Of a stretch of 64,000 nucleotides of DNA, positions 1,724-54,047 are shown piece after piece. The position numbers and the translations under genes are program-made. The notes below the pieces were generated by a model. That model saw only the letters and a list, made by a program, of their open reading frames with translations, searched no databases and was not told where the DNA came from. Source of the DNA: an uncultured Eubacteriales bacterium (GTDB lineage: Bacteria; Acidobacteriota; Aminicenantia; Aminicenantales; Aminicenantaceae); the NCBI GenBank assembly GCA_964400735.1, contig CAYNVQ010000006.1, positions 46,800-110,799 on the forward strand, in the 5' to 3' direction. Numbering within the stretch: position 1 is the stretch's first letter; each line of letters starts with the position of its first letter.

Positions 1724-3871
1724 ATGCTTGATAATCTTATAATCGCCGTCAAAAGGCAAAAAAAGCTGATCATCATTTTCCTGCTCACCATTTTTCTCCC
1801 TTCCATTGCGCTCAGTATTTTTGGAATAAGGGCCATAAGGAATGACAGATTCAGATTGGTTCAACAGCTGGAAGACGAGCACAAAAGGGCAGCCACCTTC
1901 TTGAAGAATCAGATTGACTCCCGGTTCGAGGATGTCGGAATCAAACTGCAGAATCTGGTACAGAATACAGCTTTCGGGCAAAAAAATTACGCCCTTATCA
2001 AAGAGGCACTCAACAATCAGTCTCAAAATGATCCGCTCATCGAACTCGTTTTTCTGGCCTATAAGAATGAGGAGCCGTTGTTTCCTCTTTTTCTGCCAAT
2101 TTCTCCAATTAGAGCGTCTCCAGTCTTATCTCCTCCGGGCAGCGCCCTGAGAGAGAGGCTGGAAAGGGCCCAGAGAATGGAATTCGGCCAGAAGAATTTC
2201 TCTGAAGCAGCGACCCTGTATGAGCAGATTCTCTCCCGCTCTGAAGACAAAGACATCCAGGCACAAATGCTCAACAATATGGCCCGATGTTACACGAAGT
2301 TGGAAAATTATGACAAGGCCATCCGCTGCTATTCACGAATCTGTGAGGAGTATCCTCAGTGTATGACCTCTTCTTCATTACCCTTGGACCTGATAGCCAA
2401 GATTCAGATTGTCAAATGCTACAGAAGCATGGGGGCTTACGATATCTTCTTAACATCCGCTCTAGATTTATACAGGAAGCTTCTCCAGAGGAAGTGGTGT
2501 CTGGACGCCGACCAATTCAATACCTATGCTTTAATGGTCGAAAAGGATCTTTCGGACCTTTTATCGATGGAAGAAAGAAAATCGGACAACGATGGCTACT
2601 ATCAAGAATTTGCGGAACTGAAAGAACTCCATCGCCAATTGGATGAGCAGTGGGAGGTGGTCAGAAATGTAAAAAACTCTATCCTACCCGAGCTCCAGGG
2701 AAGATTTACTCTGAATCCCGCTTATCCCTTCGCTCCTATCCGTCATTCAAAGACTATAGGCCAAAAAAATTACCTTGTTGTTGCCTCAGCTGTCCCTCAA
2801 AATGAAAATGAGGAGTTTATCGGCTTGCTCGGTGTCAAAATCGATGACCGGCATCTTCTCGACAGCGAAATTATCAGCATATTGGGTGATTTCCCCTTTT
2901 CACAAGAAGCGTCTTTATCCGTTTCCACTCTTTCAGGGAGAACTCTTTTAGAATATGGGAATCATTCTTATCATGATCCTAGCGCAACAACTTATTTCAA
3001 CGAAAGCTTCCCTCCCTGGAGAGTAGATTTTTTTCCGGCTGATAATGGAGGTTTAGGTGTCCTGAACCTGAGAAAAAGTTTCTATTTCTGGACTATTCTG
3101 ACTGTCCTGGTCCTCCTCACCTTTGGAGCTGTGCTCGTGGTCAGGACCGTCGCTCACGAGATGGAAGTCCTCAGGGTCAAGTCGGATTTTGTCTCCTCGG
3201 TTTCCCATGAGTTTCAAACTCCCATAACAGCCATTAAAGCTTCGATAGAGAGACTTCAGCAGGGAAAAGTCAGGACTCCTGAAAAAAGGGAGGAGTATTA
3301 TTCGATCATATCCAAAGATGCCGATAAATTGGGCAGCCTGGTGCGGAACATTCTGGATTATTCTAAAGTCGACGCTGGACGCAAACAGTATTTCTTCCAT
3401 GAAACAGATTTGGCTCAACTGGTCAAGGAAGAAATCATGAACTTTGAAAGAGACAAAATTTTCGCCAGGATTAAGATCGAAACCCAGATATCACCGGGTG
3501 TTCCAGTTATCGATGTAGACAAAGAAGCTTTTTCTTTAGCCTTCAATAATCTTTTGGAAAATGCTGTTAAATTTTCCCCTGGTCAAAAAAAGGTCTATGT
3601 GGAGGTCCGAGAGGAGGCAGAAAGTGTCAGGGTGGATGTCAGGGACAAAGGCTCGGGCATTACCTCCAGCGAAACGGATAAAATTTTCGATAAATTTTAT
3701 CAGGGAAAAAATGCAGCCCGGCAGTCCTTTAGAGGGACAGGTCTTGGATTGACATTGGTCAAGCATGTGATGGAAGCCCATGGGGGAAAGGTTCTAGTAG
3801 AAAGCGAAATTGGAAAGGGGAGCACATTTTCACTTATCTTTCCCCAAAAACATAGAGGGAGTAAGCCTTGA
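1724..3871 (+). CDS. Sensor histidine kinase, module 1: TM1, ~420-aa extracytoplasmic TPR-like sensor domain, TM2, HisKA, HATPase; no HAMP
   Basis: TM helices are LIIIFLLTIFLPSIALSIFGI and FYFWTILTVLVLLTFGAVLVV. The H-box SVSHEFQTPITAI follows TM2 directly. N, G1 and G2 boxes are present: [17 protein letters not shown] and GTGLGLTLV. Conserved FPPW and AExEFxQKN motifs are shared with the six paralogs in the window. Confidence 0.85.
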   Translation: MLDNLIIAVKRQKKLIIIFLLTIFLPSIALSIFGIRAIRNDRFRLVQQLEDEHKRAATFLKNQIDSRFEDVGIKLQNLVQNTAFGQKNYALIKEALNNQSQNDPLIELVFLAYKNEEPLFPLFLPISPIRASPVLSPPGSALRERLERAQRMEFGQKNFSEAATLYEQILSRSEDKDIQAQMLNNMARCYTKLENYDKAIRCYSRICEEYPQCMTSSSLPLDLIAKIQIVKCYRSMGAYDIFLTSALDLYRKLLQRKWCLDADQFNTYALMVEKDLSDLLSMEERKSDNDGYYQEFAELKELHRQLDEQWEVVRNVKNSILPELQGRFTLNPAYPFAPIRHSKTIGQKNYLVVASAVPQNENEEFIGLLGVKIDDRHLLDSEIISILGDFPFSQEASLSVSTLSGRTLLEYGNHSYHDPSATTYFNESFPPWRVDFFPADNGGLGVLNLRKSFYFWTILTVLVLLTFGAVLVVRTVAHEMEVLRVKSDFVSSVSHEFQTPITAIKASIERLQQGKVRTPEKREEYYSIISKDADKLGSLVRNILDYSKVDAGRKQYFFHETDLAQLVKEEIMNFERDKIFARIKIETQISPGVPVIDVDKEAFSLAFNNLLENAVKFSPGQKKVYVEVREEAESVRVDVRDKGSGITSSETDKIFDKFYQGKNAARQSFRGTGLGLTLVKHVMEAHGGKVLVESEIGKGSTFSLIFPQKHRGSKP

Positions 3872-4566
3872 TGAGAATAAGGGTGCTCATTGTAGAGGAT
3901 GATCAGGGTATCCTATTAAACCTCAAGGACGAATTCGAATCCTATGGGTGCACGGTTTTTTCAGCCGAAGATGGAAACGAGGGGCTGACCTTGGCAAGGG
4001 AAAAAAGGCCGGATCTGATCATATTGGACCTGATGCTTCCCGGCAAGGATGGCTATGAGGTGTGCCGAGAGTTGAGGAGCGAGGGCAGCAAGACGCCCAT
4101 CATCATGCTGACGGCCAAGACTCAAGAGATCGATAAGGTGCTGGGCTTGGAGCTGGGAGCCGACGACTATGTGACCAAGCCTTTCAGCCTCAGGGAGCTC
4201 ATGGCAAGGGTGAAAGCGGTGTTGAGAAGAACAGGAGAGCGGACAGAGGATCAAAAGGCCCTCGATACCTACAGCTTTGGCCGGATTGAGCTGGACTTTA
4301 AAAGATATGAGGCCAAAAAAAAGGGGAAAAAATTAAAGCTCACTCCTTTACAATTCCATATGCTAAGACTTCTCATTCAGAACAAGGGAGAAGTCCTTTC
4401 CAGAAATGAGCTGCTCGATGAAATCTGGGGAAAGGACAATGTTTGGATTTCGCACCGTACCATAGATAGCCATATGGCCAATATCCGAAGGAAGATAGAG
4501 GCCGATCCTGCCAACCCCAAACACATCCTCAGCATTAGAGGGGTGGGGTATAAGTTTGTGGATTGA
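3871..4566 (+). CDS. OmpR-family response regulator, module 1: receiver plus winged-helix
   Basis: Receiver motifs are present: LIVEDD, phospho-acceptor D in IILDLMLPGKDG, the T in LMLTA and the K in YVTKPF. The C-terminus carries a trans_reg_C domain, ...SIRGVGYKFVD. The ATG overlaps the HK1 stop as TGATG. The track start at 3868 is an upstream TTG. Confidence 0.9.
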   Translation: MRIRVLIVEDDQGILLNLKDEFESYGCTVFSAEDGNEGLTLAREKRPDLIILDLMLPGKDGYEVCRELRSEGSKTPIIMLTAKTQEIDKVLGLELGADDYVTKPFSLRELMARVKAVLRRTGERTEDQKALDTYSFGRIELDFKRYEAKKKGKKLKLTPLQFHMLRLLIQNKGEVLSRNELLDEIWGKDNVWISHRTIDSHMANIRRKIEADPANPKHILSIRGVGYKFVD

Positions 4567-4643
4567 CGGCTTGTGCGCGTAAAATGCAGTGTATTTGCAC
4601 ATTTCCTGAACACATATGCCCTTCGATAGACATATATTAAATT

Positions 4644-6827
4644 GTGGGAGAAAGAAAGAGCTTAAATAGCATAAGACAGGTGAGAAAATTGGACATGTAT
4701 AAAAGATTCCTGCTCCCTTCTTTCGTATTATGCTTTAGCTTTCTCATTCTCACCACTTATTTAGCGGCACAGCAAACCGCAGGAGAGATGTTCCAGGAGG
4801 CGCTCTACTTGGAAGAGGCCGAAGGAGACCTGGAGCGGGCCATCGAGCTTTACCAGAAGATTTTGGAGCAGTTTGCAGGAGAAAGGGAGGTGGCTGTCAA
4901 GGCCCAACTCCACATCGGCCTCTGCTATGAAAAATTGGGCTTGAAGGAGGCTCAGGAAGCTTTCGAGAAGGTTATCGAAAATTTTCCGGATCAAGAAGAA
5001 GAGGTGAAGATCGCGCGGCAAAAATTGGCCCGTCTGGTGAAGGCGAAAGCCGTGATCGAGGATAAAAAAACAGAGCTGAGTATGCAGAAGGTATTCACTG
5101 GTATCAACAGGGATTTTGTCGGTACGCCATCTCCTGATGGGCGATACCTTTCCACGGTGGATTGGGAGACCGGAGACCTGGCTATCAAGGAGATCCCTTC
5201 CGGCAAACTGCGCCGCCTCACCCATAAGCACAACTGGGTAGAGTCGCAGGAGTATGCTCTCGTCTCCGTTTGGTCTCCTGATGGGAAAAAATTGGCCTAT
5301 TCATGGATGAATGAGGATCGCTTTTTTGAGCTTCGTACTATTGGCTTGGATGGCTCAGAGCCGCAAGTCCTTTATCGAAATAAAGAAAATTTTTATGTTC
5401 ATCCATTTGACTGGTCCCCAGATGGAAGATATGTCTTAGCAGGACTGGGAAAAGGCCAGAGGATCACTCAGATAACGACGATCTCAGTAAAGGACGGAGC
5501 AGTCAGGATTCTAAAAAAACACAAGGTTAATACCGGTTTAAAAGATGACATTTATGAGTCTGGATTTTACCTGCCCGATGGGAAGACCATTATCTTCGGT
5601 TTTGTCGCAGAAATACCAGGCTCTCGAGGAAGTGATATTGCGCTTCTTTCAGCCGAAGGTGGTGGTGAGCAAGTCATTCTTGTCGAGGACCCTGCACATG
5701 ACGTGCCGCTCGTTTGGGACCCTCATGGCGAAAGGCTTCTTTTCATGAGCGACCGGACAGGGAATATGGATCTATGGGCCCTGGAGATGAAACAAGGCAA
5801 ACCTCAGGGAAAGCCTTACCTCCTCAAAAAAGATATAGGAAGGATAACCGCTCTAGGATTCACGGATGATGAGGACCTGTATTATGTGCAGTACGCAGGT
5901 ATGAACGATGTTTACACGGCAACTCTAGACCCCATGACAAATTCTTTTTCAGCACCTCCACAGAGGGCCACGAAGCTGTTTATCGGAGCCAATAGGTCAC
6001 CTGATTTTTCTCCGGACGGGAAATCCCTGGCCTATATTTCTGAGAGATCATACGGACCCGGACGTTTCACAACGCCGGTCATATGTATTCAATCTTTGGG
6101 CTCTGGCGAAAAGCGCGAACTCGTTACGAAACTCGATCGCATATATTTTATCCGCTGGTCGGCTGATGGGAAAAATTTCTATTCTCATGGATTCGACGGA
6201 AAAGGACGGACAGGCCTTTTTTCCATCGACGGCAAAACAGGTGACCTAGATTTATTATTGGATTGTGGAGAAGAGGAGTACATTCCTGAGCTCGATGTGT
6301 TTCCAGATGGGAAAAGGATCGTGTACAAGATGTGGGAGCAAAAGAGGCAGGGAGATGGATATATCATGAGCATTAGGGTTCGAGATATCCAGAGTGGGAA
6401 AGAAGAAGAGATCTATCGCCACGAGAATGCCAGTCAGACCGATTGTGTGACCTTATCTTCGGATAGCCAATGGATAGCCTTCGATGACCGGGTTCGCTTC
6501 CCGACATTAAACGTCATTCCTGCCACAGGAGGAGAAGCTGAGGAGCTGTATCGAATGGAGTTTGGAGAGAGTATCCTTTCATTGGCTTGGAGGCCGGGGG
6601 AACAAGAAATATTTTTTGTTAAAGGAGCAGAACTTAATCAACTGTGGAGGGTAAATTTAGAGGATAAAGAACCGCAGAGGATGGACTTTTCGATGAGAAG
6701 TCTGGGTGATTTACGCTTCCATCCGGATGGGAGGCATATTGCCTTCCATGCAGGGTATGTAGAAGTCGAGGTCTGGGTGATGGAAAATTTGCTGCACTTG
6801 GAAAGAAAAGACAAAGTTTTTAGATAA
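4644..6827 (+). CDS. Secreted TPR-like plus PD40/TolB-like beta-propeller protein, module 1
   Basis: The probable true start is the ATG near 4695, giving MYKRFLLPSFVLCFSFLILTTYLAAQQ as signal peptide. The N-terminal helical domain carries the family motif AVKAQLHIGLCYEKLG. There are multiple PD40 repeats: SPDGRY, WSPDGKK, WSPDGRY, FSPDGKS, FPDGKR and HPDGRH. The family C-terminal motif is VWVMENLLH. Confidence 0.8.
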   Translation: MGERKSLNSIRQVRKLDMYKRFLLPSFVLCFSFLILTTYLAAQQTAGEMFQEALYLEEAEGDLERAIELYQKILEQFAGEREVAVKAQLHIGLCYEKLGLKEAQEAFEKVIENFPDQEEEVKIARQKLARLVKAKAVIEDKKTELSMQKVFTGINRDFVGTPSPDGRYLSTVDWETGDLAIKEIPSGKLRRLTHKHNWVESQEYALVSVWSPDGKKLAYSWMNEDRFFELRTIGLDGSEPQVLYRNKENFYVHPFDWSPDGRYVLAGLGKGQRITQITTISVKDGAVRILKKHKVNTGLKDDIYESGFYLPDGKTIIFGFVAEIPGSRGSDIALLSAEGGGEQVILVEDPAHDVPLVWDPHGERLLFMSDRTGNMDLWALEMKQGKPQGKPYLLKKDIGRITALGFTDDEDLYYVQYAGMNDVYTATLDPMTNSFSAPPQRATKLFIGANRSPDFSPDGKSLAYISERSYGPGRFTTPVICIQSLGSGEKRELVTKLDRIYFIRWSADGKNFYSHGFDGKGRTGLFSIDGKTGDLDLLLDCGEEEYIPELDVFPDGKRIVYKMWEQKRQGDGYIMSIRVRDIQSGKEEEIYRHENASQTDCVTLSSDSQWIAFDDRVRFPTLNVIPATGGEAEELYRMEFGESILSLAWRPGEQEIFFVKGAELNQLWRVNLEDKEPQRMDFSMRSLGDLRFHPDGRHIAFHAGYVEVEVWVMENLLHLERKDKVFR

Positions 6828-7059: not shown

Positions 7060-8058
7060 TTACTGAGTAACGGGATTTTTGATGAAGTCGATGTAGAAAT
7101 AGAAATCGCCTTTTGCTTCCATGGAATAGTACCATGTCGCTCTACCTTTATTGCGCTCACAGTACCGCTCTTGGACCTTAAGGTTAATGTATTCTGGAAG
7201 ACTAAGACTTGCAGGGAAAGTTCTGTTTAATAAATCATAATCAAGCACCCTTATTCTCCACACCCCGTCACTTCCTATTCCGTATTCTGCTTCATATAAT
7301 CCTTCGTTTAACCTCTCTATCGCAATATTCATAGGCTCACCTTTTTCCACCAGAGCTTCATAATTGATATTTCTGTAGAATTCAATATCATGATAGGCCG
7401 GGTTGGCTTCGCATTTATCCCGATAACGAGCTACCATTATAAAATAATCTCCGTTTCCTCCAGGAGCACAAGCACTTCCAAATCCATAAATTTCTCCAGG
7501 TATCATGCTTTCAATATCTTTGTCGGAGGTAATCCAAACATAAATGTAGAAAGACACATAGTCAGGGTGAGGGTGAGTGCTGTTCAAGAAATCGGCCATA
7601 CAACCAGGGTCGCAATCAAGACCTATACAATCTCCTCCTGCACATAAATCATCAGGGAATTGGCAGCAAGGCCTGCCCTCATCAGGATACGCTATATCAT
7701 CCCAATTACCAACGTTTACACCCTGAAAGCGTACATATTTAGATGGAGGGCTTCCGAGATTTTCGTTTTTAAGTACAAAACTAAAGTCGTTCTTTTCGAC
7801 TTTCACCTCGGTAGAAGAGCCATTTTCATACAAACCATCAGTACTTTCCATTCCATAAAGCATATTACCTGAATCTTCGATTGGAATTCGAACCGCCCAG
7901 GTGGCTTGTGGTTCACTCGGTTTATCGGGTTTCCCTGGATTTTCAGGTTTTTTCTGGATTTGGACCTGAGCCTGCATAAGGCTGATGCCGGCCAGAAACA
8001 CAACCATCACAAAGACACTTAAAATCCCCAAAAAACTTAGTTTTCGGACTTTTCTCAA
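7060..8058 (-). CDS. Hypothetical secreted cysteine-rich protein
   Basis: The N-terminus MRKVRKLSFLGILSVFVMVVFLAGISLMQAQ is a signal peptide, followed by a Pro/Lys-rich linker, KPENPGKPDKPSEP. A Cys cluster, CCQFPDDLCAGGDCIGLDCDPGC, is present. No family recognised. Confidence 0.5.
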   Translation of the reverse strand: MRKVRKLSFLGILSVFVMVVFLAGISLMQAQVQIQKKPENPGKPDKPSEPQATWAVRIPIEDSGNMLYGMESTDGLYENGSSTEVKVEKNDFSFVLKNENLGSPPSKYVRFQGVNVGNWDDIAYPDEGRPCCQFPDDLCAGGDCIGLDCDPGCMADFLNSTHPHPDYVSFYIYVWITSDKDIESMIPGEIYGFGSACAPGGNGDYFIMVARYRDKCEANPAYHDIEFYRNINYEALVEKGEPMNIAIERLNEGLYEAEYGIGSDGVWRIRVLDYDLLNRTFPASLSLPEYINLKVQERYCERNKGRATWYYSMEAKGDFYFYIDFIKNPVTQ

Positions 8059-8393
8059 TTTAACCTCCTTTTCTGATTTTTACTGATTTTAGATTGCCAG
8101 GTTTAAAAAATTTTTATTTTCCATCACCTCCTCTCTTTTTGTTCAGATGTCGCTGTGGTTGTTTTTAATATAGGAATTTTCTGAATGGCTTGTGTTAAAG
8201 AACTGTGCAAATTTCCCACATATTCCGTGGAAGCTATATCGAAAGACCACCTTCTTCCAGAGGATCTGTAGAAATCAGAGGAAGGCGTTTGATTAGTAGG
8301 GGAGCCTGCCCAAGAAGGGAGCCGACCTGAAATGGTTATTAAAGTTAAACAATTTTTAGTTTCTGTTCCTGGTCTGGTGGATCCGGATAACCG

Positions 8394-11301: not shown

Positions 11302-11330
11302 TTGACAGAATCTTCACACTTCCTTAACGT
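11302..11330 (+). promoter_or_regulatory. Putative promoter of HK2 module: TTGACA-N17-TAACGT
   Basis: cTTGACAgaatcttcacacttcctTAACGTtaaat matches the HK1-upstream element. It shares the -35 hexamer TTGACA, the gaatc following it and the TAACGTT -10 region. It lies divergent from the TonB receptor gene. Confidence 0.45.
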
Positions 11331-11390
11331 TAAATCCTAACGAGTATGGTAAACTAGCAGTGGGAGAATCGCTTCATTTCGGGATCGGGC

Positions 11391-14223: not shown

Positions 14224-14365
14224 AATGCCATTGCGAGGAATGTGATCACGAAGCAATTTTCTAAAAATGACTGCGTGGTATTTTCATGGAATCTCCATAC
14301 TTCCTTGACACGCCCCGTTTCAAGAATCGTTATATTGAGATTAACGAAATGAAACGGAGGTTATC

Positions 14366-16510: not shown

Positions 16511-16671
16511 TGAAAAGAATTGGGACGTTTCTATTTTTTCTTGCGTCCAAGCCTACTGAAAAACAAACTCTAACCATTTACTTAAAAAAAATGAACCGTC
16601 TCCTTTTTCTTTCAGGAAAAATCTTTACAATTCCATGACAACTGAGTAGCCATAGATGATAAAATGAATAC

Positions 16672-19349: not shown

Positions 19350-19455
19350 TGTTGGGATCTTTACAAAATAATTACAAATTTCTTACATGGCCATGACAAC
19401 CCAGAGATTTAAAAAGCTTATCTTCGGAGTGAAACAAAATCCGAGGAGGCAAACG

Positions 19456-36472: not shown

Positions 36473-36496
36473 CTGGTACGTTTAAGTGAGTGATAG

Positions 36497-37087: not shown

Positions 37088-37090
37088 ACC

Positions 37091-38074: not shown

Positions 38075-38150
38075 ATGCATGAATGATCATTGACTGCTGA
38101 TCATTTGTGGATTCCGTGAGAGCGAAACTTCCGTAAAGGAGAGGACAATT

Positions 38151-40484: not shown

Positions 40485-40508
40485 ATGACATTTTCGTGAC
40501 ATTTTGAC
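40485..40508 (+). promoter_or_regulatory. Direct-repeat element ATGACATTTTCG-TGACATTTTGAC upstream of HK6
   Basis: This is a TGACATTTT direct repeat with 11-bp periodicity, about 65 nt upstream of the HK6 start. The same 17-mer ATGACATTTTCGTGACA recurs at 43274..43290, upstream of the module-6 PD40 gene. The 11-bp spacing is typical of OmpR/PhoB-family binding sites. Confidence 0.35.
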
Positions 40509-43273: not shown

Positions 43274-43290
43274 ATGACATTTTCGTGACA
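43274..43290 (+). promoter_or_regulatory. Second copy of ATGACATTTTCGTGACA plus further GACATTTTG/TTTCGTGA repeats upstream of PD40 gene 43415
   Basis: The 17-mer is an exact match to 40485..40501. Additional TTTCGTGA (43303..43310) and GGACATTTTGCG (43330..43341) lie in the same 185-bp intergenic region. Confidence 0.35.
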
Positions 43291-45580: not shown

Positions 45581-47706
45581 GAAAAGCAGAGATTTTGGCA
45601 GCAGTTCTAATTTTAATTGGCTTTAGCGTTACAACTCTCGCCCTCCAAAACGGCTATGACCTCTTCCAGAAAGCTCTAGCCAAGGAACGGGCAGAAGGAA
45701 ACCTTGAGGAAGCCATCGCCCTTTTCCAGAAAGTCATCGAGGAATCCGAAGACGAATCCTTGGCTGCCAAGGCCCAGCTCCGCATCGGCATCTGCTACGA
45801 AAAGCTGGGGCAGGAAAAGGCAAAATTGGCTCAGGAGGCTTTTCAGAAGGTGCTCGAAAATTATCCGCAACAAGTCGATACTGTCAAAGTAGCCAGAGAA
45901 AAGCTGTCGGGTCTCTTGAGAGCTCAAGTGCTTATGGAAAAAAATGTCGAAGGGTTAAGCCTGCGTCATCTATTGATGCCATCGGGAAGAGGGGAAGATT
46001 TTGGCATCGGCGAATTCGTATCTCCCGACGGAAGGTTCTTCGCTTATTTTGATTACAACGCCGGGGCCGTAGGCATCTATGAGCTGGCAACAGGAAAAAA
46101 GCAGCTGTTAAAGAGCAAGATTAAAGAGGATGAGCCGTGGGGAGAGAGTTGGCAATTGATCTGGTCTCCCGACAGCAAAGCGCTCCTCTGCAACTGGTGG
46201 CAGACGCCGGATTACCATTGGTCCGATCTGCGAATCATCCGCCTTGATGGGACAGAACAGCGGTCTGTCTTCCGCTCTGAGGAATATGACGAAGTCTATC
46301 CCATGGATTGGTCCTCAGACGGAAGCCAAATTCTCGCGGTCTTCTACGGAGATTTTCCAGAAGGGAAAAAAATAGGTCTCATCTCTGTTAAAAACGGATC
46401 TGAACGCATCTTGAAAACCAGCGATTACGGATGGGCGCACATGAAATTTTCGCCGAATGACAGGTACATTGCATACGACTATTACTCTCAAGAAGAGCAC
46501 TACAACCGTAATATTGCTATCCTTTCAGCAGATGGAAAAGTGGAAATCCCGCTGGTCACACATCCAGCACAGGACTCTCTTGTGGGCTGGTCTCCCGACG
46601 GAAAGTATGTGCTCTTTACAAGCGACAGGACAGGGACAAATGATCTTTGGCTGATCCCTTTCAAAGATGGGAGAGCTGCAGGGAATGTACGATTGATCAA
46701 AGAGGGATTGGGGAAAATCGATGTGGGCGGAATAACCCAAAATGGATCTTTGTATTATATATCTGGGGGGCAGATGGAGGATATCTATGTTGGCGAATTG
46801 GATTGGGTTTCCGGAAAAGTCGATATAGCCCCGGAAAAAATGACCTTTTCACAGGAAGGGAGCAACTCTTGGCCTCAATATTCTCCGGATGGGAAGTCCA
46901 TCGTTTGTGTTCAGGGAGGCGGAATTATGGCAGAGCAGGCAGAAACATCGCTGTGCGTCCGTTCTTTGGAAAATGGCATAGAACGAAAATTTGCGTTGAA
47001 GATGCAGGCTCGACTTCCGCGATGGTCTCCAGACGGCCGCTTTATTTATTTCACATCATTTGATCGTCCCCGTCATTGGAGCATCTTTCGGGTTGAATTA
47101 AGAACAGGTCAGGTTTCGAAATCCTGGCCAGAAGATTTTGGAAGCAAACCAATCGGCAATGTTTTTGTTGGGATTTCTCCTGACGGCAAGAATTACTACT
47201 ACATTCGTTGCGATGAACAAGACAAATACAGCCGACTTGTTGTCCGGGATCGGGGGACAGGGAGCGAGAAAGAGCTTTTACGCAAAGTTATGACGCTCAT
47301 TGTAGCTTCCTTATCTCCTGATGGGAGATGGCTTGCTGTGACCAGTCGGGAAGAAGAAAGGGCGATCCTGATTGTGCCGTCAGAAGGAGGAGAGCCTCGA
47401 GAACTGTGTCGATTCAACCTCAAAGGAGGGCATCCTACATGGCTCGATTGGACTCCTGACAGCCAATCCATCATTTTCAGCAGAAGGATCGATGAGTCAA
47501 AATCTGGGGTTTCGGGGTGGGGACTGTATCAAGTCTCTATTGATGGAGGAGATCCTCAGTTCCTGGGAATCAGCACAACATATATTTCAGATTTCGATGT
47601 CCACCCCGATGGAAAACAACTCGCTTTCGCCTCTTATGGTCCCGAATGGAAAGAAGCCAAGCTGTGGGTGATGGAGAATTTCCTCCCTGATACTGAGAAA
47701 AAATAG
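45577..47706 (+). CDS. Secreted TPR-like plus PD40 beta-propeller protein, module 6 copy B; tandem paralog
   Basis: The ATG at 45577 sits behind AAGGAGG and forms an ATGA overlap with the stop of the upstream paralog. The signal peptide is MRKAEILAAVLILIGFSVTTLA. The first ~60 residues are almost identical to copy A: QNGYDLFQKALAKERAEGNL.EAIAL.QKVI.ES.DESLAAKAQLRIGICYEKLG. The C-terminus is LWVMENFLPDTEKK. The track start at 45520 is an upstream extension. Confidence 0.8.
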   Translation: MRKAEILAAVLILIGFSVTTLALQNGYDLFQKALAKERAEGNLEEAIALFQKVIEESEDESLAAKAQLRIGICYEKLGQEKAKLAQEAFQKVLENYPQQVDTVKVAREKLSGLLRAQVLMEKNVEGLSLRHLLMPSGRGEDFGIGEFVSPDGRFFAYFDYNAGAVGIYELATGKKQLLKSKIKEDEPWGESWQLIWSPDSKALLCNWWQTPDYHWSDLRIIRLDGTEQRSVFRSEEYDEVYPMDWSSDGSQILAVFYGDFPEGKKIGLISVKNGSERILKTSDYGWAHMKFSPNDRYIAYDYYSQEEHYNRNIAILSADGKVEIPLVTHPAQDSLVGWSPDGKYVLFTSDRTGTNDLWLIPFKDGRAAGNVRLIKEGLGKIDVGGITQNGSLYYISGGQMEDIYVGELDWVSGKVDIAPEKMTFSQEGSNSWPQYSPDGKSIVCVQGGGIMAEQAETSLCVRSLENGIERKFALKMQARLPRWSPDGRFIYFTSFDRPRHWSIFRVELRTGQVSKSWPEDFGSKPIGNVFVGISPDGKNYYYIRCDEQDKYSRLVVRDRGTGSEKELLRKVMTLIVASLSPDGRWLAVTSREEERAILIVPSEGGEPRELCRFNLKGGHPTWLDWTPDSQSIIFSRRIDESKSGVSGWGLYQVSIDGGDPQFLGISTTYISDFDVHPDGKQLAFASYGPEWKEAKLWVMENFLPDTEKK

Positions 47707-49055: not shown

Positions 49056-51146
49056 CTATTTTTTGCCTTCCGGCAGAAAGTTTTCCATGACCCAGTATTC
49101 CGGGTAGGGCATGGAAAATCCTTCAGATGAAAATACGATCTCGTTGCCATTTGGGTGAACTTGGGGTTCGTCCGGATCGAGCATGGATAAACCAACCTCG
49201 AGCAATTCTCCTCCGTTGAGCGGTATGCGGCAAAACGCTTCTTGTCCCAATACATCTGATTTTTTGAAAAAGAGAATATATTGGCTGTCCGGAGTCCAAG
49301 TTAAGGCAATTGGAGCGCCCCCTCGTTGGTTGAACCGGCAGAGCACGCGCGGCTCTCCTCCTTCCGCAGGAATGATCTTCAGCTCCCGATCCAATTCACG
49401 CCCAATAAAGGCCAGCCATTTTCCATCTGGCGAAAGGGAAATATTCGCATAAGAGTGGGATGTCTGGTGTATTTTTTTCCTTTTTTCCGTTTCAAAATCG
49501 TAACGGCATATGAGGTCATTAGATTTGCCCTTTTCCCCTTGAATGTAAAAGAAAAATTTTCCGTCTGGTGTCCATTCACTGAAACGGTATTCTTCTTTTT
49601 CGGACGGCTTCGGCAACAGGATAGCTTTTATATCTTCTGTCTGAACATCGATCCTGAAGATTCCAGTCAATCTGGATTCGGTGATTCCCGATAAAAGAAT
49701 AGCTCGACCATCCGGAGACCACCGTGGATAGAAGGCTTTCACGTTAAGAGAGAATGTTTTCTCTTTTCCTGATCCCAGAGAGCGAATATGCAGGGATGAG
49801 CTGTAATGTCCAAAAGAACCACGAATGTAAGCCAGGTTTTTTCCATCAGGCGAATAGGCTGGGAAATCGTTGCTCCCCTCAGATGGGAGGTCCATCTTTT
49901 CTGGTGGATTTTGAATCTCTCCGGTCTCTGGATCGAGTGAAGAGGTGTAGATATCTTCCATCTCCTTTGAAGACATAAAATAAAAGGAGCCATCTTTACT
50001 GAAACCCAATGGAGTATTTACCGCTCCTCTTTTTACCAATAGGGGATCCCCTTGTGTTTTTCCATCGCTGATTGAAACTATCCAGGCATCGTCGGATCCC
50101 AATCGGCTGCTTTGAAAAAGAATCCATCGCCCATCAGGTGACCATCCGAGCATTTTTTCATTTGCAGGGTGCTCGATCAGAGGAATCTCTCTGCTTTCCT
50201 CCATAGCATACAGGTAAATATCGCTTTCAGGGCTTTTCTCCTCTTGAGGTTTTTCATAAGCGATATATCGGCCGTCTGGGGATATGTTTGTATTTCTTCC
50301 CAATTTAATTGGAATGGCTTGTGTTGTTTTATCCTTCAGAGACAACACCGCCCTTTGGTTTTCAAGCCCGTCTTTTGATAAAGCGATCAGAATTTGTTCA
50401 CCGTCAGGAAACCAGTCCAGCGGCCAGGCATACGCGATTTCTTCATTCTTATAGACCGTATAAGGTTTTTTATCTTCAATTCCTATGATTCTAATGTCTG
50501 AAAAAGACTTTCCGTGCCACCAATCATAGACAATCTTTTTTCCATCCGGGGACCAGGTGGAATAAAGGGGATAGCCAATTTCATTCTTTTGGTCGGTAAG
50601 AAGCTGTTTCTTTCCGGTGGTGAGATCTCGGATGGCCAGATTGTTCGTTTTCCAATCCACGATCGAGACATATCGTCCATCAGGGGAGACAGCACCCAGC
50701 CACCCGTCATAGAGGGTATCCGGTCCGGATACCAACTGCCTGACTTTTAATCCAGTGTCCCCTCTCTCGACGACTGCTCGAGCTCTAGCAAGAACAGAGA
50801 GTTTTTTGTTGGCCATTTTGACCGCTTCTGCCTGATCGGGATAGTTATCCACGACCTTCTGGAAAGCATTCTGGGCCTGTCTCAAACCCAGTTTTTCGTA
50901 ACATATCCCTACGAAATATTGTGACTTGGCGGCGTATTCTCTTTCGTTCGGATATTTGGCGATGATCTCCTCGAAGAGCTCGATGGCTGCGTTGAGATCT
51001 CCTTTGGTTTCCATGGTGTACTTGGCCTTTTCGAAAAGCACCTTGTGCTCTGAGGAGTTCTGGAACCCAAAGGCTGTGAAGATAAAGGCGGCCGCAAATA
51101 TGGCAAATAATGGAATGATTTGAATTAAAGTTTTTTTCCGGCTCAT
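49056..51146 (-). CDS. Secreted TPR-like plus PD40 beta-propeller protein, module 7, reverse strand
   Basis: The preferred start is the ATG at 51146..51144 behind GAGGAGG, giving MSRKKTLIQIIPLFAIFAAAFIFTAFG as signal peptide. The track start at 51233 is upstream in frame. The TPR-like N-domain includes AKSQYFVGICYEKLG. WSPDGK, SPDGR and HPNGN repeats are present. The C-terminus is YWVMENFLPEGKK. Confidence 0.8.
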   Translation of the reverse strand: MSRKKTLIQIIPLFAIFAAAFIFTAFGFQNSSEHKVLFEKAKYTMETKGDLNAAIELFEEIIAKYPNEREYAAKSQYFVGICYEKLGLRQAQNAFQKVVDNYPDQAEAVKMANKKLSVLARARAVVERGDTGLKVRQLVSGPDTLYDGWLGAVSPDGRYVSIVDWKTNNLAIRDLTTGKKQLLTDQKNEIGYPLYSTWSPDGKKIVYDWWHGKSFSDIRIIGIEDKKPYTVYKNEEIAYAWPLDWFPDGEQILIALSKDGLENQRAVLSLKDKTTQAIPIKLGRNTNISPDGRYIAYEKPQEEKSPESDIYLYAMEESREIPLIEHPANEKMLGWSPDGRWILFQSSRLGSDDAWIVSISDGKTQGDPLLVKRGAVNTPLGFSKDGSFYFMSSKEMEDIYTSSLDPETGEIQNPPEKMDLPSEGSNDFPAYSPDGKNLAYIRGSFGHYSSSLHIRSLGSGKEKTFSLNVKAFYPRWSPDGRAILLSGITESRLTGIFRIDVQTEDIKAILLPKPSEKEEYRFSEWTPDGKFFFYIQGEKGKSNDLICRYDFETEKRKKIHQTSHSYANISLSPDGKWLAFIGRELDRELKIIPAEGGEPRVLCRFNQRGGAPIALTWTPDSQYILFFKKSDVLGQEAFCRIPLNGGELLEVGLSMLDPDEPQVHPNGNEIVFSSEGFSMPYPEYWVMENFLPEGKK

Positions 51147-51242
51147 GGTGAAACCTCCTCGTTTTGATCTTTCACCATTCAATTTAACTCTTTTCCTCCC
51201 GCCTGCTGTCAAACAAACATAAACAAATGTCAAAGAATGTCA

Positions 51243-51929
51243 TCAGTCCATGAATCTGTAGCCTTCTCCGTAAACTGAAAGGATATGCCGGGGACGGGAG
51301 GGGTTCTCTTCGATTTTTTTTCTCAATTTCAAAATATGATTGTCTATGGTGCGGGTGGTGGGGAATTTCTCGTATCCCCAGATTTTATCCAGTAAGTCAT
51401 CCCTTTTGACCACTTCTCCCGGATAGGAAAGAAAATATCTGAGGATTTCCGCTTCCAGCGAAGTCAAATCCCACTCCTTTCCTGCACGCCTTATCTTGAA
51501 ATGGTTGAAGTCGATCTCCACATCTCCGAGAGTGTAGATATCTGGTATGGATCTGGTGCTTCTCTGTTCCCGTCTCAGGTGGGCCTTTATCCGTGCCAGA
51601 AGCTCGCGGATGCTGAAGGGCTTGGTGATGTAATCGTCGGCGCCGATCTCCAGCCCTACCACTTTATCGATCTCTTCTCCTTTGGCCGTGAGCATGATGA
51701 TGGGAGTGCCGATCTTTTTTTCCCTGAGCTGGCGGCAGACCTCCAGCCCGTCCTTTTTGGGGAGCATGATATCCAGGATGATCAATGCCGGTCTTTCTTT
51801 AAAGACTCGCTCGAGCCCCTGCTCTCCATCGGATGCCCAGGCTACATGATACCCCTCATCCTCCAAATTAAGCCTCAGTCCTTTGACCAGGTCCTCTTCA
51901 TCTTCGATGATCAATATCTTTTCTTTCAT
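51243..51929 (-). CDS. OmpR-family response regulator, module 7
   Basis: [13 protein letters not shown] is present. The phospho-acceptor lies in [19 protein letters not shown] is present. The C-terminus is [11 protein letters not shown]. Confidence 0.9.
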
Positions 51930-51938: not shown

Positions 51939-54047
51939 TTATCTGCCCTCAAGGGGCAGAATGATAGAAAAAGTGGTTCCTTCTCCCGGCTCGCTCTCCA
52001 CATCCACCCGCCCTCCATGGGCCTCGGTGATGTGCTTGACCAGGGTTAATCCCAGGCCGCTTCCCTTGGCCTCGGGCGAGAGCTTGTTTTTCGACCGGTA
52101 AAACCTGGTGAAGATCTTTTTGATTTCCTTGGGAGTTATACCGATTCCCTTATCTGATACTTGAAGTACGGCTCTCCCATTCTCTTTAAACAGCCTTACC
52201 GCAACTTCCTTTTTATCCGGAGAGAACTTCACCGCATTGTTCAAAAGGTTGATTAGAACGCTGGAGATGGCTTCCCGGTCGAAAAGCATTTCAGGAAGAT
52301 TGGAATCTATTCGGTCGTGAACTGAAAATCCTTTCTTCTCCAGATGGTAACGGTAGGATTCGAGAGTCTCTTTAACCGCCTCAGCCAGGTCGCCTATTTG
52401 AAAATCGAATTCTTTTCGTCCCATGTCGATCCTGGAGAAGTCAAGGACATTGTTGATCAGGTGGGAAAGGCGTTCGCTCTCTTTGGTGATGATCTCGTAA
52501 CATTCAGCTTTTTGGAGGTCTGAGAGGTTTTTTTTCCGCTGGAGGGTTTCTCCGTAGAGGCGGATGAGGGTAAGAGGCGTTTTCAATTCATGGGAAACGT
52601 TGTGGACAAACTCGGTTTTTTGGCGGGTGGCTTCCTTTTCCCGGGTGATATCCCGGGCGATGAGAATGGCCCCCAGAGCCAGGAGCGTCACGATCACGAA
52701 AAATAGAATGCCGTAAGCAAAGACATCTCGTTGGGCTGTTTGCTGGAGGTTTTCCAATCCCGGTTGGGCCACAGCGAGCTGCCAAGAAATAGGAAAATGC
52801 CGAAAAGAAAAGGTCAGAGAAGAAGCCTCAGAGACGTTATCTCTATTTGAAGATCGATCACTCTCATCTGTGATCCTGACCATAAGGCCTGTTTCTTTTT
52901 CGATGTTATTCAGAATTTGAGGGATGAGATTTTCCTTCAATAATCGAAGGTCCCAACAGAATCCTCCATGGCCGCCTCTATCCAGCTGAGAGAGTGCTCT
53001 ATAAGATATCATATAAGATTGATCTAAGTGGTGAGCGAGCAGGCGCTTAGGCTGGTCTTTTTCACTGACTGGAGTCAAGCTGACATTTTCTTTTATCCTG
53101 GGAATGACTTTTGTTTTTAAAAACTCGGCAAACAGCAGGGATTCCAGATAAGGAGATGCCCGGCTTTGGAGCGACCGGAAAGTTGCCTGAAGTTCGGGGA
53201 GATCATTTTCCCTTAGCCTATCTTCGATATCGGCCTCGATTTCTTCGATGAAAAGATCATAGGCCGGAATATCGATCAGCCATTTGCCGTTTTTGATATT
53301 TTCATATAGATGGAGTATGGCTTCGAGGCTTTTTGTCTCCTCTCCCATTTGCTGGCTGATTTCATAAAGCTGGAGAGAGGCCGTTATTCCGAAGGGATGC
53401 CCGGCTTTGTTTTTAAGATGACTGTATTCCCTGAGGAGTTGTTCGTAGACCTCCACAGCCCTATCATATTTTTTCATGGAAGCTAAGCATCTTCCTATTG
53501 CCTCTAAAGCTGTGGCCTTGTGCTGACTGGAAGGCGCCTTTTGATAGTATTCCTGATAGAGCTCAACAGCCTGGGTATAGTTTTTATCAGAGAACTCGAA
53601 GTTTTCGGCCTTCTGATATGATTCGCCGAGTGGTTGCTGAGACGAATCCATTTCTTCAAGAAATTCAGGTTTCTCATCTATTCCCGTCCGGGGAAAAAGG
53701 ATGAGGAAGTCCTCATCCAACAAAAAATATTTCCCCTTTTCTGAGCCGAATGGAATTTCTGTTTTCAAAGGAACGAATCTGCCTTTGTTTTCTTTAATCA
53801 AACTTGCGAAATTTTCTAAGCTCAATGTCTCACGTTCGTTTTCAAGAAGAGAGTTCTCGAGTGATTTAAGAGCGGTATTTCCTGATACCCAGAGATTTGA
53901 TTCCACAATCTGTTGAACCGTTTCTCTCCGCTGCGAAAAGGTCTTCATGCTCAGATAGGCGATGAGAAGGGAGGGAAAAATGATGGCGAGCAGAAAAATA
54001 ACAACGATTTTTTTTCCGCCGAAAGGACCAAAAAAGGACCTGTTCAT
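51939..54047 (-). CDS. Sensor histidine kinase, module 7, same two-TM architecture
   Basis: TM1 is [19 protein letters not shown]. The sensor domain carries [20 protein letters not shown] and [15 protein letters not shown]2 is [22 protein letters not shown]. The H-box is [21 protein letters not shown] is present. Confidence 0.85.

Follow-up and report, generated by a model that had tools for sequence, protein, structure and literature searches.

Seven copies of a kinase–regulator–TPR/PD40 module in an uncultured Aminicenantes bacterium: probable autoregulated circuits with an exchangeable secreted output

Introduction

In an uncultured Aminicenantes bacterium from sediment, a unit of three genes is present seven times, all within the 64,000-nucleotide stretch of DNA analysed here (the window): the genes of a sensor histidine kinase (HK), a response regulator (RR) and a secreted protein with TPR and PD40 repeats (PD) follow each other. 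What is the role of the third gene beside a two-component system (TCS)? A preliminary description of the locus considered the PD40 protein either a periplasmic co-sensor of the kinase or the kinase's dedicated output, and allowed for the arrangement being an accident of this locus.

Results

Organization of the modules

The seven triplets of the preliminary description are present in the ORF list with the coordinates and strands assigned to them there. Six lie on the + strand: module 1 (HK1, 1724..3871; RR1, 3868..4566; PD1, 4692..6827), module 2 (HK2, 11391..13529; RR2, 13537..14223; PD2, 14366..16510), module 3 (HK3, 16672..18648; RR3, 18645..19349; PD3, 19456..21546), module 4 (HK4, 21632..23770; RR4, 23763..24455; PD4, 24560..26734), module 5 (HK5, 30282..32429; RR5, 32416..33102; PD5, 33211..35313) and module 6 (HK6, 40572..42542; RR6, 42539..43228), which has two PD40 genes, PD6a (43415..45580) and PD6b (45577..47706). 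Module 7 is on the − strand (HK7, 51939..54047; RR7, 51243..51929; PD7, 49056..51146). Domain profile searches, as that description had suggested, found HisKA and HATPase_c in HK1–HK7, Response_reg and Trans_reg_C, i.e., the OmpR/PhoB type, in RR1–RR7, and TPR_6 and PD40 repeats in the third genes. Every PD40 protein of the window has an N-terminal Sec-type signal sequence. Over longer mechanical ORFs, the starts given earlier are likely for PD3 (19456) and PD7 (51146), judging from the SD context, and for PD6b (45577) and HK5 (30282, the mechanical start being 30243), judging from the N-terminal sequence. PD1 was placed at its mechanical start, 4644, and probably begins at 4692 instead, because a conserved −10 element (4633-4638) lies just upstream of 4644.

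The HK and RR genes either overlap or have no more than 9 nt between them; the gap between RR and PD has a median of 96 nt (57 modules), and no terminator-like site was found in it in modules 1–3. Across the modules, the paralogs are 25–42% (HK), 47–68% (RR) and 21–39% (PD) identical and thus old duplicates rather than recent repeats. The window contains nine PD40 paralogs, two of them in module 6 and one behind an ECF sigma/anti-sigma pair.

In the kinases, TM1 (~aa 15-45) and TM2 (~aa 400-480) enclose a periplasmic domain of ~360-430 aa, followed by HisKA and HATPase_c; it measures ~420 aa in HK1 and is shorter in HK3 (~360 aa) and HK6. The preliminary description recognised no sensor-domain family in it, but its fold is of the KinD/LuxQ-like double-PAS (dCache-like) type, into which a TPR domain is inserted. 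The kinase cores score best against PnpS, PhoR and WalK, with MtrB at rank 10 for HK1 and rank 5 for HK3, and the regulators against YycF, RpaB, MtrA and PhoB. Neither the sensor domain nor the PD40 protein exceeded the cutoff of any NCBIfam or PADLOC family, and as far as these resources and a full-text literature search reach, the triad does not match a described system, as had been supposed.

Conservation of the gene order

The synteny extends well beyond this locus. In 57 loci from other genomes, the sequence behind 60 kinases of the sensor family is long enough to judge the order; 58 of these kinases are followed by RR and then PD, and the loci include MAGs labelled Bacteroidales, so that the gene-neighbourhood analysis proposed earlier clearly contradicts a purely local arrangement. 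That tandem duplication merely spread a chance neighbourhood in one lineage, with a PD40 gene functionally unconnected to HK and RR, is strongly disfavoured and in our view very improbable. It is true that most sensor-domain relatives for which an organism is named bear the label Aminicenantes or Acidobacteriota, that among 1.84 billion cluster representatives just 151 match at E<=1e-10, and that an accidental neighbour could spread through tandem arrays. However, the order is this consistent, Bacteroidales-labelled MAGs included, across modules with RRs only 40–55% identical; it persists despite repeated replacement of the propeller body, and cognate promoters have module-specific boxes in common.

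Direct-repeat boxes at the HK and PD40 promoters

These boxes, found upstream of both HK and PD40 genes, are direct repeats of TTnACA-like hexamers with an 11-bp period, and all lie on the strand of their module. The alignment of 31 HK promoters gives the consensus TTGACA-N5-TTCACA-N5-TTAACG; this U-consensus stands upstream of clade-5 HK genes (31 modules), and the three-hexamer direct repeat upstream of HK1 (TTGACAGAATCATTCAACTGCCGTAACG, 1633..1660) is homologous to it. The consensus of 25 aligned PD promoters is TTTCA-N6-CTTCAyACTTCCTTrACA-N20-TATATT-~20-GGAG, with the box 20 nt upstream of the conserved TATATT; in Bacteroidales-labelled loci the −10 element is TAnnTTTG and the distance is unchanged. 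In module 1 the PD promoter (4596..4638) consists of TGCACATTTCCTGAACA (4596-4612), N20 and TATATT. Module 2 has TTGACAGAATCTTCACACTTCCTTAACG upstream of HK2 (11302..11329) and TTTCATGGAATCTCCATACTTCCTTGACA, N20 and TATATT ahead of PD2 (14282..14336), the latter promoter being kept in the orthologs L031, L026 and L003. In module 3, TTTACAATTCCATGACA precedes HK3 (16624..16640), and three TTACA repeats with an 11-bp period precede PD3 together with a fourth hexamer, TGACA, 12 bp further (19360..19398). The two boxes of module 6, ATGACATTTTCGTGACA... upstream of HK6 (40485..40508) and ATGACATTTTCGTGACA on the PD side (43274..43290), are equal at 17/18 positions of their common 18-nt window. Module 7 has TGACATTCTTTGACATTTG...TTTGACA on the PD side (51207..51243) and TTTACATTTTTTTGACA, then TATAAT, upstream of HK7 (54177..54193). 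The HK-side box of module 4, TCCACC-N5-TCAACC-N5-TCAACA (21567..21594), is a candidate with weaker evidence (cognate score 14/18).

The best common 18-mer of cognate HK/PD upstream pairs scores 14.75 on average as opposed to 13.36 in non-cognate pairs (z=9.7), which was reached in 0/20000 permutations and likewise in 0/20000 within-locus permutations; the score is weak or ambiguous in modules 1 (HK side), 4 and 5 (12-14 of 18). A loose box pattern is not over-represented window-wide (22 observed vs 15.4±4 expected), and 17 of its 22 matches are intergenic, intergenic DNA making up 11.5% of the window. The box type covaries with the RR clade and the recognition-helix sequence, and it is from this covariation and from OmpR/PhoB-family precedent that we infer binding of the RRs to the boxes. 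The common boxes, the TATATT spacing and the covariation with RR clade suggest that the PD40 gene is most likely a direct output activated by the RR, and the same boxes at the HK promoter suggest that the HK-RR operon is most likely autoregulated.

A module-1-type box, TGCACAGTTCTTTAACA (8193-8209), followed by N20 and TATATT, also stands upstream of unk332, which encodes a Cys-rich secreted protein (7060-8058; with the box, 7060..8242, − strand). Behind PD, the module-1 orthologs L008, L009, L010 and L012 have a homolog of it in convergent orientation. The gene unk332 is a candidate second target of RR1.

Mosaic structure of the PD40 protein

The PD40 protein, exemplified by PD1, comprises a signal peptide, a TPR head and two beta-propellers. 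Its predicted structure (TPR plus two propellers, pLDDT 86) has the tricorn protease (1k32) as the top Foldseek match in the PDB, at 12% sequence identity and with 10-14% to the structural matches listed; homologs have precomputed Pfam Tricorn_N/Tricorn_2nd matches.

This protein is a mosaic: its propellers have changed places among modules, and the breakpoints are sharp at the nucleotide level. The divergence of signal peptide and TPR head parallels that of RR and sensor (rho 0.47-0.66), whereas the propellers co-diverge with each other (rho 0.78) and not with the head (0.10) or the TCS (~0), in statistics whose pairs are not phylogenetically independent. A sharp identity drop 22-44 aa past an AKAQ..G.CYEKLG motif is seen in 59/129 ortholog-level pairs. 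Between L029-15205 and L033-9902, a ~1.9-kb nucleotide block is mostly 75-95% identical (one 60-nt window is at 68%) and its flanks ~25-65%; PD2 of the window and L031 display the inverse pattern. PD2 is a chimera: its first ~80 aa are orthologous to, and 70-97% identical with, the PD of its orthologs, and its propellers, only ~25% identical, are a foreign cassette. Few nucleotide stretches can be recognised as conserved throughout the PD paralogs; the block encoding the TPR motif (4893-5026 in PD1) and the 3' VWVMENFLP block belong to these. In module 6, the head of PD6b (family D13) is 81% identical to that of PD6a over 188 nt, and the whole proteins are 39% identical.

Is the PD40 protein a partner of the kinase?

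In a co-sensor arrangement like LuxP-LuxQ, TorT-TorS or MtrB-LpqB, the propellers would capture a ligand, the TPR head would dock onto the periplasmic domain of the kinase and gate its activity, and the RR-dependent PD40 promoter would form a feedback loop; cassette exchange would then re-programme what each kinase detects. The linkage is indeed near-obligate, the kinase sensor too has an array of TPRs, modules typical of protein-protein contacts, and another member of the PD40 family stands behind an anti-sigma factor with a periplasmic domain of its own. There is precedent in MtrAB-LpqB, which has been termed a three-component system and has the lipoprotein gene downstream of that of the kinase (PMC12818412). 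The TPR head diverges in step with the kinase (rho 0.59-0.65), but its correlation with the TPR insert of the kinase vanishes (partial r 0.008) after control for RR, core and Cache part, as simple linkage predicts. Kinase and PD TPRs cross-match weakly (E 1e-4 to 4e-6), but not specifically in cognate pairs. Between propeller body and sensor there is no co-divergence at all. Orthologous kinases whose sensors are 61-74% identical have propellers that are just ~27% identical. Moreover, no fusion of a PD40 body with a kinase occurs among the best 120 homologs, and a loop with its own co-sensor as sole output would be without effector. The covariation analyses did not specifically support an interface at which HK and PD40 protein co-evolve, and we regard a co-sensor as unlikely, though by no means negligible.

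A sigma-linked paralog and the envelope

The ninth TPR/PD40 paralog (38151-40445) belongs to a triad on the + strand (36457..40445) with an ECF-type promoter, CAACC-N16-CGTTTAAGT (36457-36492), an ECF sigma gene (36497-37087) and a gene for a zf-HC2 anti-sigma factor (37091-38074), the periplasmic domain of which is ~220 aa; the triad is kept in L029, L033, L035, L036, L039 and L058. Such a sigma/anti-sigma pair is a classic envelope-stress arrangement, and the modules could be circuits of envelope stress or maintenance in which Tol-Pal-like or Tricorn-like PD40 factors, fusions of a CpoB/YbgF-like TPR and TolB-like propellers, would have misfolded or peptidoglycan-associated proteins of the envelope as their targets and would not capture specific ligands. 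Among solved structures, sequence comparison detects TolB as the sole relative, and structure comparison ranks tricorn protease first. In NCBIfam, PD proteins match TolB below threshold (E 1e-21 to 1e-33), and likewise the YbgF/CpoB/BamD TPRs (the sigma-linked paralog with E 3.6e-15). Yet these scores are far under the family cutoffs (77-114 bits vs 343 for TolB; 57 vs 90 for YbgF), domain search and model revealed neither a TolB N-terminal domain nor a PDZ/S41 catalytic domain in the PD proteins, and at least nine divergent paralogs per 64 kb with frequent cassette replacement fit specificity diversification better than housekeeping. An envelope role of this kind therefore seems quite improbable.

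Discussion

We consider it fairly probable that each module is a self-contained, positively autoregulated TCS circuit with the adjacent secreted TPR/double-propeller protein as its dedicated transcriptional output. The kinase, in the inner membrane, would sense a periplasmic signal via its double-PAS fold with the TPR array and phosphorylate the OmpR/PhoB-type regulator, which would bind two to three direct hexamer repeats of a sequence specific to its clade at two promoters, before the HK-RR operon and in the ~100-nt gap ahead of PD40, where the box would take the place of a −35 element. The product, presumably exported through its Sec signal peptide and predicted to have two tandem Tricorn/TolB-like propellers behind a short TPR head and no catalytic domain, is most likely a binding scaffold, the propellers of which would bind a ligand or target. 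Promoter, signal peptide and TPR head are inherited together with kinase and regulator, and the ~1.9-kb two-propeller body is a cassette repeatedly exchanged among modules, ending at or just past the nucleotide-conserved TPR-head block on one side and at the stop codon on the other.

Of the two roles considered originally, that of an output is thus favoured by the gene's own activator-type promoter with the same RR-type repeats as the HK promoter, and a co-sensor interface is not borne out by the covariation of the propellers with the sensor or, with shared descent controlled for, of the head with the TPR insert of the kinase. Regulation of PD40 by the RR is compatible with a feedback or co-sensor role as well; CpxP and MgrB are each both output and modulator, and the PD40 protein may have a CpxP- or LpqB-like feedback role. 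A circuit with a putative binding protein as its sole visible output is an incomplete explanation, and there is at least one further candidate target, unk332.

Comparison with known systems

In the actinobacterial MtrAB-LpqB system and, by analogy, in WalRK-YycHI of Firmicutes, the gene for a conserved extracytoplasmic protein likewise lies directly downstream of an OmpR/PhoB-type TCS, and LpqB has a beta-propeller domain too, according to the Pfam description of Gmad1. The order there is RR-HK-lipoprotein, whereas it is HK-RR-PD here; LpqB is a GerMN+Gmad1 lipoprotein, whereas the PD40 proteins of the window have Sec-type signal peptides, no lipobox, and a TPR head with two Tricorn/TolB-like propellers, Gmad1 matching in PD4 alone and sub-threshold (E 0.0016). 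Unlike MtrAB-LpqB, the module exists in many paralogous copies per genome, and its third gene combines a separate RR-box promoter with a body that can be exchanged. LuxP-LuxQ and TorT-TorS also link a separately encoded periplasmic protein genetically to a kinase, but the PD40 fold is not that of periplasmic binding proteins, the window kinases have an extra TPR insert and are not hybrids, and evidence of sensor/propeller co-evolution was not found.

Two tandem periplasmic beta-propellers associated with a TCS are also a feature of the Bacteroides hybrid TCS BT4663, both propellers of which bind ligand (PMC5121618), and Bacteroides HTCS resemble the modules in their many paralogous sensor/output units per genome. 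In the window, however, the propellers form a separate secreted protein and not the kinase's own sensor, the kinase is not a hybrid, the RR is a separate OmpR-type protein, and HK and PD proteins contain no Reg_prop or Y_Y_Y domains. In PULs, HTCS or ECF-sigma/anti-sigma regulators adjoin their outputs; the PD40 output family is similarly coupled either with a TCS or with an ECF sigma/anti-sigma pair, but no SusC/SusD genes adjoin the window modules.

As to the output itself, the tandem-propeller architecture is common to the N-terminal beta6/beta7 propellers of tricorn protease, the PD40 repeats to TolB and the TPR_6-type head to YbgF, whereas all scores against curated families are far under cutoff. 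Rhs/CdiA-type polymorphic secreted toxins undergo displacement of C-terminal cassettes, and here, too, a constant N-terminal export part stays and the C-terminal body is swapped by recombination at a conserved junction, the second tandem copy in module 6, with a head 81% identical in nucleotides to that of the first, being a further likeness. Unlike these toxins, PD proteins have no toxin or immunity domains and no PADLOC match; the swapped part is a pair of beta-propellers, and a dedicated TCS would control the complete gene.

Composition of the Modules and the Fold of the Kinase Sensor

The seven triplets named in the preliminary description, in each of which a sensor kinase (HK) gene is followed by genes of an OmpR/PhoB-type response regulator (RR) and of a secreted TPR/propeller protein (PD40), are all present in the ORF list, six on the + strand and one on the - strand, and Pfam searches confirm the assignments of the three families. 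HisKA (E 1e-15 to 1e-24) and HATPase_c (E 1e-26 to 1e-29) are found above the Pfam cutoffs in 7/7 kinases, and the H, N, D-G-G and G-G-L-G columns of the kinase are at least 90% conserved across 53 homologs. Response_reg (E 1e-28 to 1e-33) and the winged-helix, DNA-binding Trans_reg_C domain (E 1e-24 to 1e-27) are likewise found in 7/7 regulators. By their domains, the HK-RR pairs appear to be classical two-component systems (TCS), each made of a HisKA kinase and an OmpR/PhoB-family regulator. The third genes code for TPR_6 and PD40 repeats (Pfam), and all PD40 proteins begin with a Sec-type signal sequence, in which no lipobox Cys was seen by eye, the ends being A-x-A/QQ-type sites. Module 6 has two PD40 genes (PD6a and PD6b). 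The module paralogs must be old, since their pairwise identity in the window is 25-42% for HK, 47-68% for RR and 21-39% for PD40. Named homologs place the window in Candidatus Aminicenantes/Acidobacteriota; an Rfam scan of the window gave no match to an RNA family.

Each kinase has two hydrophobic segments with 360-430 residues between them. Pfam finds in this sensor region only weak TPR matches at about residues 140-260, the NCBIfam matches of the kinases are limited to the kinase core, and dCache_1 (PF02743) has no match at E<=0.01 in the seven window kinases, being recorded as a precomputed match in a few homologs (proteins P0072, P0083, P0105, P0107 and P0115). In the AlphaFold2 model, built with 53 homologs (pLDDT 84), a long N-terminal helix leads through a small beta element to an array of helical repeats (~107-250); a long return helix and an alpha/beta module (306-404) come next. 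The predicted fold is of the dCache/tandem-PAS kind, with a long helix, PAS-like modules between two transmembrane segments and fold similarity to solved members. As far as the searched libraries show, a dCache-like fold into which a TPR array is inserted would be an undescribed sensor architecture. The sensor family is small: an exhaustive HMMER scan of 1.84 billion cluster representatives returned only 151 proteins at E<=1e-10, and the matches listed are mainly proteins of ~700 aa aligned over the whole sensor, the others being shorter fragments and long proteins aligned over the TPR stretch only. Its organism-named members are mostly labelled Aminicenantes or Acidobacteriota, with a few Bacteroidales labels.

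Conservation of the Module in Other Genomes

A locus search in one genome per GTDB species, with an alignment of six sensor-domain sequences as the query, returned 57 loci, on all ORFs of which profile HMMs made from the three window families were run. When the count is limited to sensor-family kinases with at least 1.5 kb of downstream sequence (n=60), RR and then PD40 follow 58 of the 60; of the two exceptions, one is a contig that ends right after RR and the other a truncated kinase. The order noticed in the window is therefore kept outside it and is not a peculiarity of this locus. On the complete Aminicenantes chromosome CP070750.1, three modules stand in tandem and two more elsewhere. 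An Oxidored_molyb (sulfite-oxidase-like) gene comes after the array both in the window (35405-36361) and in CP070750.1 (21518-22139 of locus L003), which indicates that the synteny of the array is conserved on a large scale.

Several other genes were observed beside the modules. A gene of a small DUF3996 protein lies directly 5' of the module 1 kinase (1011-1484) and precedes related modules in four other loci (L003 4142-4597, L026 4156-4611, L007 9328-9786 and L021 8590-9048); one clade of modules may have it as a fourth conserved neighbour. Divergent from module 7 is a gene (54342-57482) of a Ser/Thr protein kinase of 1046 aa that contains a zinc ribbon and long arrays of TPRs; its relatives are found near modules in loci L021, L053 and L054. 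The gap between PD6b and PD7 (47815-48377, - strand) holds a putative PIN-type toxin (107 aa) and RHH-type antitoxin (80 aa), read from translations alone, and such a pair also comes after the third module of CP070750.1 (L003 20615-21371). At 57597-58624, a gene of ~100 aa is present in two copies, and behind each copy lies an element of ~150 nt that has inverted repeats of 28 nt (GGGGACGTTCCTTTAGGAACCACCCC) at its ends and no Rfam match; this looks like a duplicated gene with a MITE-like or hairpin element.

Promoters and Predicted Regulation

Reading of the intergenic regions revealed that the same short direct repeats are present upstream of the kinase gene and in the RR-to-PD40 gap of a module. 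The best shared 18-mer of the HK-upstream and PD40-upstream regions was compared across 57 modules: the mean number of matches is 14.75 for regions of the same module vs 13.36 for non-cognate regions (z=9.7), and 0/20000 permutations reach the observed value, nor does any of 20000 when permutation is confined to multi-module loci as a control for genome composition. The shared signal is weak in modules 4 and 5 and on the HK side of module 1. Over 25 sites, the promoter of the PD40 gene reads TTTCA-N6-CTTCAyACTTCCTTrACA-N20-TATATT-~20 nt-GGAG, and over 31 sites that of the HK-RR operon reads TTGACA-N5-TTCACA-N5-TTAACG, followed by a TGnTAnnnT-like -10. TTnACA-type hexamers with an 11-bp period are targets of OmpR/PhoB-family regulators such as PhoP and WalR. 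The best family scores of the RRs are YycF/WalR, RpaB, MtrA and PhoB, and the box varies by RR clade in step with the recognition helix: it is TCTTCACACTTCCTTAAC in clade 5, TTTCCACATTTCCTTAAC in clade 4, CTTGACAnnCTCTTGACA in clade 1, TTTACATTTnTTTGACA in clade 6 and ATGACATTTTCrTGACA in clade 7/8. A loose box pattern has 22 matches in the window vs 15.4±4 by chance, which is no excess, and its weight comes only from the cognate comparison and from its location, 17 of the 22 matches falling into the intergenic 11.5% of the window. A generic scan for sigma-70 promoters and terminators gave nothing beyond chance, and no terminator was found between RR and PD40 in modules 1-3. An inverted repeat of 5-3-5 form, CTTAA-CGT-TTAAG, ends HK promoters (1650-1670 and 11319-11335 in the window; it is also in the consensus of the boxes upstream of HK genes) and is absent from PD40 promoters.

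We infer from these promoters that PD40 would be under the control of RR. Of the two roles left open in the preliminary description, co-sensor of the kinase or its output, the promoter evidence supports the second; the control of PD40 by RR is also compatible with a feedback role, as could be played by an accessory of the kinase comparable to LuxP, LpqB or CpxP. PD40 seems to be the constant output but not necessarily the sole one, since a module-1-type box with N20-TATATT also lies upstream of a conserved gene of another kind (7060-8242, - strand, with the box). This gene (unk332, 7060-8058), which is convergent to PD1, codes for a secreted Cys-rich protein of 332 aa that belongs to no Pfam or NCBIfam family and is kept beside module-1 orthologs in four genomes (L008, L009, L010 and L012).

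Six loci come from metagenome-assembled genomes labelled Bacteroides, Bacteroidales, Bacteroidaceae, Mariniphaga or Bacteroidia, and the contigs of these Bacteroidales-type loci reach 399 kb and have ordinary housekeeping neighbours. TAnnTTTG is the consensus of the Bacteroidota -7 promoter. In the PD40 promoters of three loci (L041, L045 and L047), TAnnTTTG replaces the TATATT of the other loci while the geometry relative to the RR box is kept, the -10 reading TAAGTTTG or TAATTTTG, which argues that the Bacteroidota labels are right and that the module is in use there. These promoter sequences suggest that, in a second phylum, the module has become adapted to another sigma factor.

PD40 Proteins and Their Association with an ECF Sigma Factor

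The model of a PD40 protein (pLDDT 86) consists of a signal helix, a TPR head (~30-123) and two propellers (~130-420 and 433-698), and the chain stops a few residues past the last propeller strand. Its best Foldseek match in the PDB is the tricorn protease (1k32_A, E 1.4e-20), the remaining PDB matches being generic tandem-propeller proteins, and PD40 homologs carry precomputed Tricorn_N/Tricorn_2nd matches (PF26549/PF26550). No PDZ or Peptidase_S41 domain was found in the PD40 proteins and the N-terminal, TolA-binding domain of TolB is absent from them; they score 77-114 bits with the TolB model TIGR02800 vs a cutoff of 343, with the propeller blades alone matching, and their YbgF scores are far under the curated cutoff. 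For these reasons, the PD40 protein is likely a non-catalytic binding scaffold. Its membership in the TolB, Tricorn and LpqB families was rejected, as curated cutoffs were failed or defining domains were absent. There are also relatives of ~1250 aa that have a TPR head and, apparently, four propellers (P0170, P0178, P0185, P0190 and others, as well as genes at L043 756-4700 and L057 167-4039); some are labelled Planctomycetota/Sedimentisphaerales, and the gene of one labelled Planctomycetota (P0195) is at a contig end. These long relatives resemble two cassettes fused together.

A ninth PD40 paralog (38151-40445) lies downstream of genes of an ECF sigma factor and a zf-HC2 anti-sigma factor, identified by Pfam matches to Sigma70_r2, r4_2 and zf-HC2, the locus with its promoter spanning 36457-40445. 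CAACC-N16-CGTTTAAGT is conserved upstream of the sigma gene in 7 genomes, and from its sequence the locus appears to be an ECF sigma/anti-sigma pair with an autoregulated promoter of the AAC...CGT type. No conserved promoter-like element was seen in the ~65-nt gap before the sigma-linked PD40 gene, and this gene is thus probably the last of three in the ECF operon. ACGTTTAAGTG occurs both in the HK1 promoter and in the -10 region of the promoter of the ECF sigma gene (36478-36492), with a spacing that does not fit the ECF -35. The sigma/anti-sigma/PD40 triad is kept in six other genomes (L029, L033, L035, L036, L039 and L058), so the PD40 family is wired to two kinds of envelope-spanning signalling pair.

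Exchange of Propeller Bodies and the Role of PD40

Pairwise identity matrices were compared across 52 complete modules. Divergence is tightly coupled among the sensor, the kinase core and RR (Spearman 0.76-0.88), and the whole PD40 protein does not co-diverge with them (0.04, -0.02 and 0.08). For the signal peptide and TPR head of PD40, the correlation with RR, core and sensor is 0.42-0.66; the propellers correlate with each other (0.78) but neither with the head (0.10) nor with the TCS (-0.11 to -0.02). Among ortholog-level pairs of modules, defined by RRs at least 75% identical, identity drops sharply within PD40 in 59 of 129, and the change-point lies 22-44 residues past the start of the AKAQ..G.CYEKLG motif, that is, at the end of the TPR head. 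The third gene of module 2 (PD2, 14366-16510, + strand) illustrates this: against three orthologous modules, whose RRs are 82-84% and sensors 61-74% identical to those of module 2, it has 70-97% identity in the promoter and the first ~80 residues and ~25% in the remainder. Conversely, propeller bodies 66-85% identical stand behind RRs that are just 48-56% identical, including two modules of one genome, and a nucleotide block of ~1.9 kb, from ~260 nt into the ORF to the stop codon, is mostly 75-95% identical in 60-nt windows (one window 68%) between flanks of 25-65%. Fast divergence as the cause of low propeller identity between orthologous modules was rejected, because bodies up to 85% identical in amino acids are found behind unrelated TCS and the nucleotide boundaries are sharp.

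The regulatory half of the module (sensor, regulator, promoter, export signal and TPR head) is thus inherited as a block, and the two-propeller body is swapped between modules. Such swapping at a defined junction makes new combinations of sensed signal and product in an uncommon manner. Few nucleotide stretches are conserved across the window PD40 paralogs; they include the block coding for the TPR motif (e.g., 4893-5026) and the 3' end coding for VWVMENFLP, and it is plausible that these two serve as recombination handles. The 5' ends of PD6a and PD6b are 81% identical over 188 nt (43460-43647 vs 45622-45809), with the proteins 39% identical, and PD6b looks like a spare head joined to a different cassette. 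Two tandem PD40 genes were also observed in locus L007.

The same comparisons bear on the role of PD40. The propellers show no co-divergence with the kinase sensor, and the correlation between PD40 head and kinase is what linkage predicts: the partial r for the kinase TPR insert is 0.008 when RR, core and the Cache part are controlled for. TPR cross-hits between HK and PD40 are also not specific to cognate pairs. As these tests of partnership were negative or neutral, we consider that PD40 is probably a dedicated, RR-activated output with an exchangeable body, and rank the accessory role second, as an unlikely one. Less likely still is a plug-in receptor, in which the constant TPR head would dock on the TPR/Cache domain of the kinase, the propeller cassette would provide ligand recognition and recombination would re-programme sensing. 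If this is true, the triad would be a modular three-component sensing system with swappable cassettes, which ECF anti-sigma factors would use in parallel, and recombination at a conserved TPR junction would change what the TCS senses and amplifies.

With PD40 as the output, the finding that orthologous sensors drive unrelated propeller bodies suggests that diversifying selection acts on the response to a given signal. The exchange points to strong diversifying pressure on the propellers, whose targets could be variable ones (polymers, phage or molecules of competitors, for instance). Annotation of two-component systems usually proceeds gene by gene, and to our knowledge the outputs of those in uncultured phyla have hardly ever been established. 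Here, each HK/RR pair has its predicted operator at two promoters, one of them that of a secreted double-propeller protein, so the output can be read from the sequence. This provides a testable regulon for the whole sensor family in Aminicenantes, a lineage abundant in sediments and the subsurface, and apparently in some Bacteroidales as well.

Comparison with Known Systems

The suggestion that the triad is not a described signalling system has held: no paper, NCBIfam model or PADLOC model was found for it, the literature search returning no paper that joins PD40, histidine kinase, response regulator and periplasmic and no Aminicenantes paper on the triad. The PADLOC defence models have no match for the PD40 proteins, unk332 or the anti-sigma factor, and match HK and RR only as generic HATPase and receiver.

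The likeness to Tricorn, TolB and CpoB is one of the structure of parts, and PD40 fails the defining domains or cutoffs of these proteins; the tandem beta6/beta7 propellers of the tricorn protease match those of PD40, which lacks its C-terminal PDZ and S41 domains. Double propellers are also shared with hybrid two-component systems of the Bacteroides BT4663 type, but there they are the kinase's own sensor (PMC5121618), part of a hybrid kinase whose output is of the AraC type, whereas in the triad they are on a separate protein; Pfam found no Reg_prop, Y_Y_Y, receiver or HTH_AraC domain in the seven window kinases. LuxPQ and TorTS resemble the triad in the sensor fold of the kinase. Their partner protein has a type I periplasmic binding protein fold, unlike the TPR head and tandem propellers of PD40.

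The closest system in logic is MtrAB-LpqB, a three-component system (PMC12818412), from which the triad differs in gene order, in the lipoprotein nature of the third component and in its domain family. LpqB is a lipoprotein with GerMN and a Gmad1 propeller; the PD40 proteins are without a lipobox, and Gmad1 matches PD4, the third gene product of module 4, alone (E 0.0016, 18.7 bits vs a cutoff of 20.5). In the triad, a two-component system is joined by a conserved third gene; its distinctive features are a composite Cache-TPR sensor, duplicated predicted operators, an output family common to ECF systems and an output body exchanged as a cassette.
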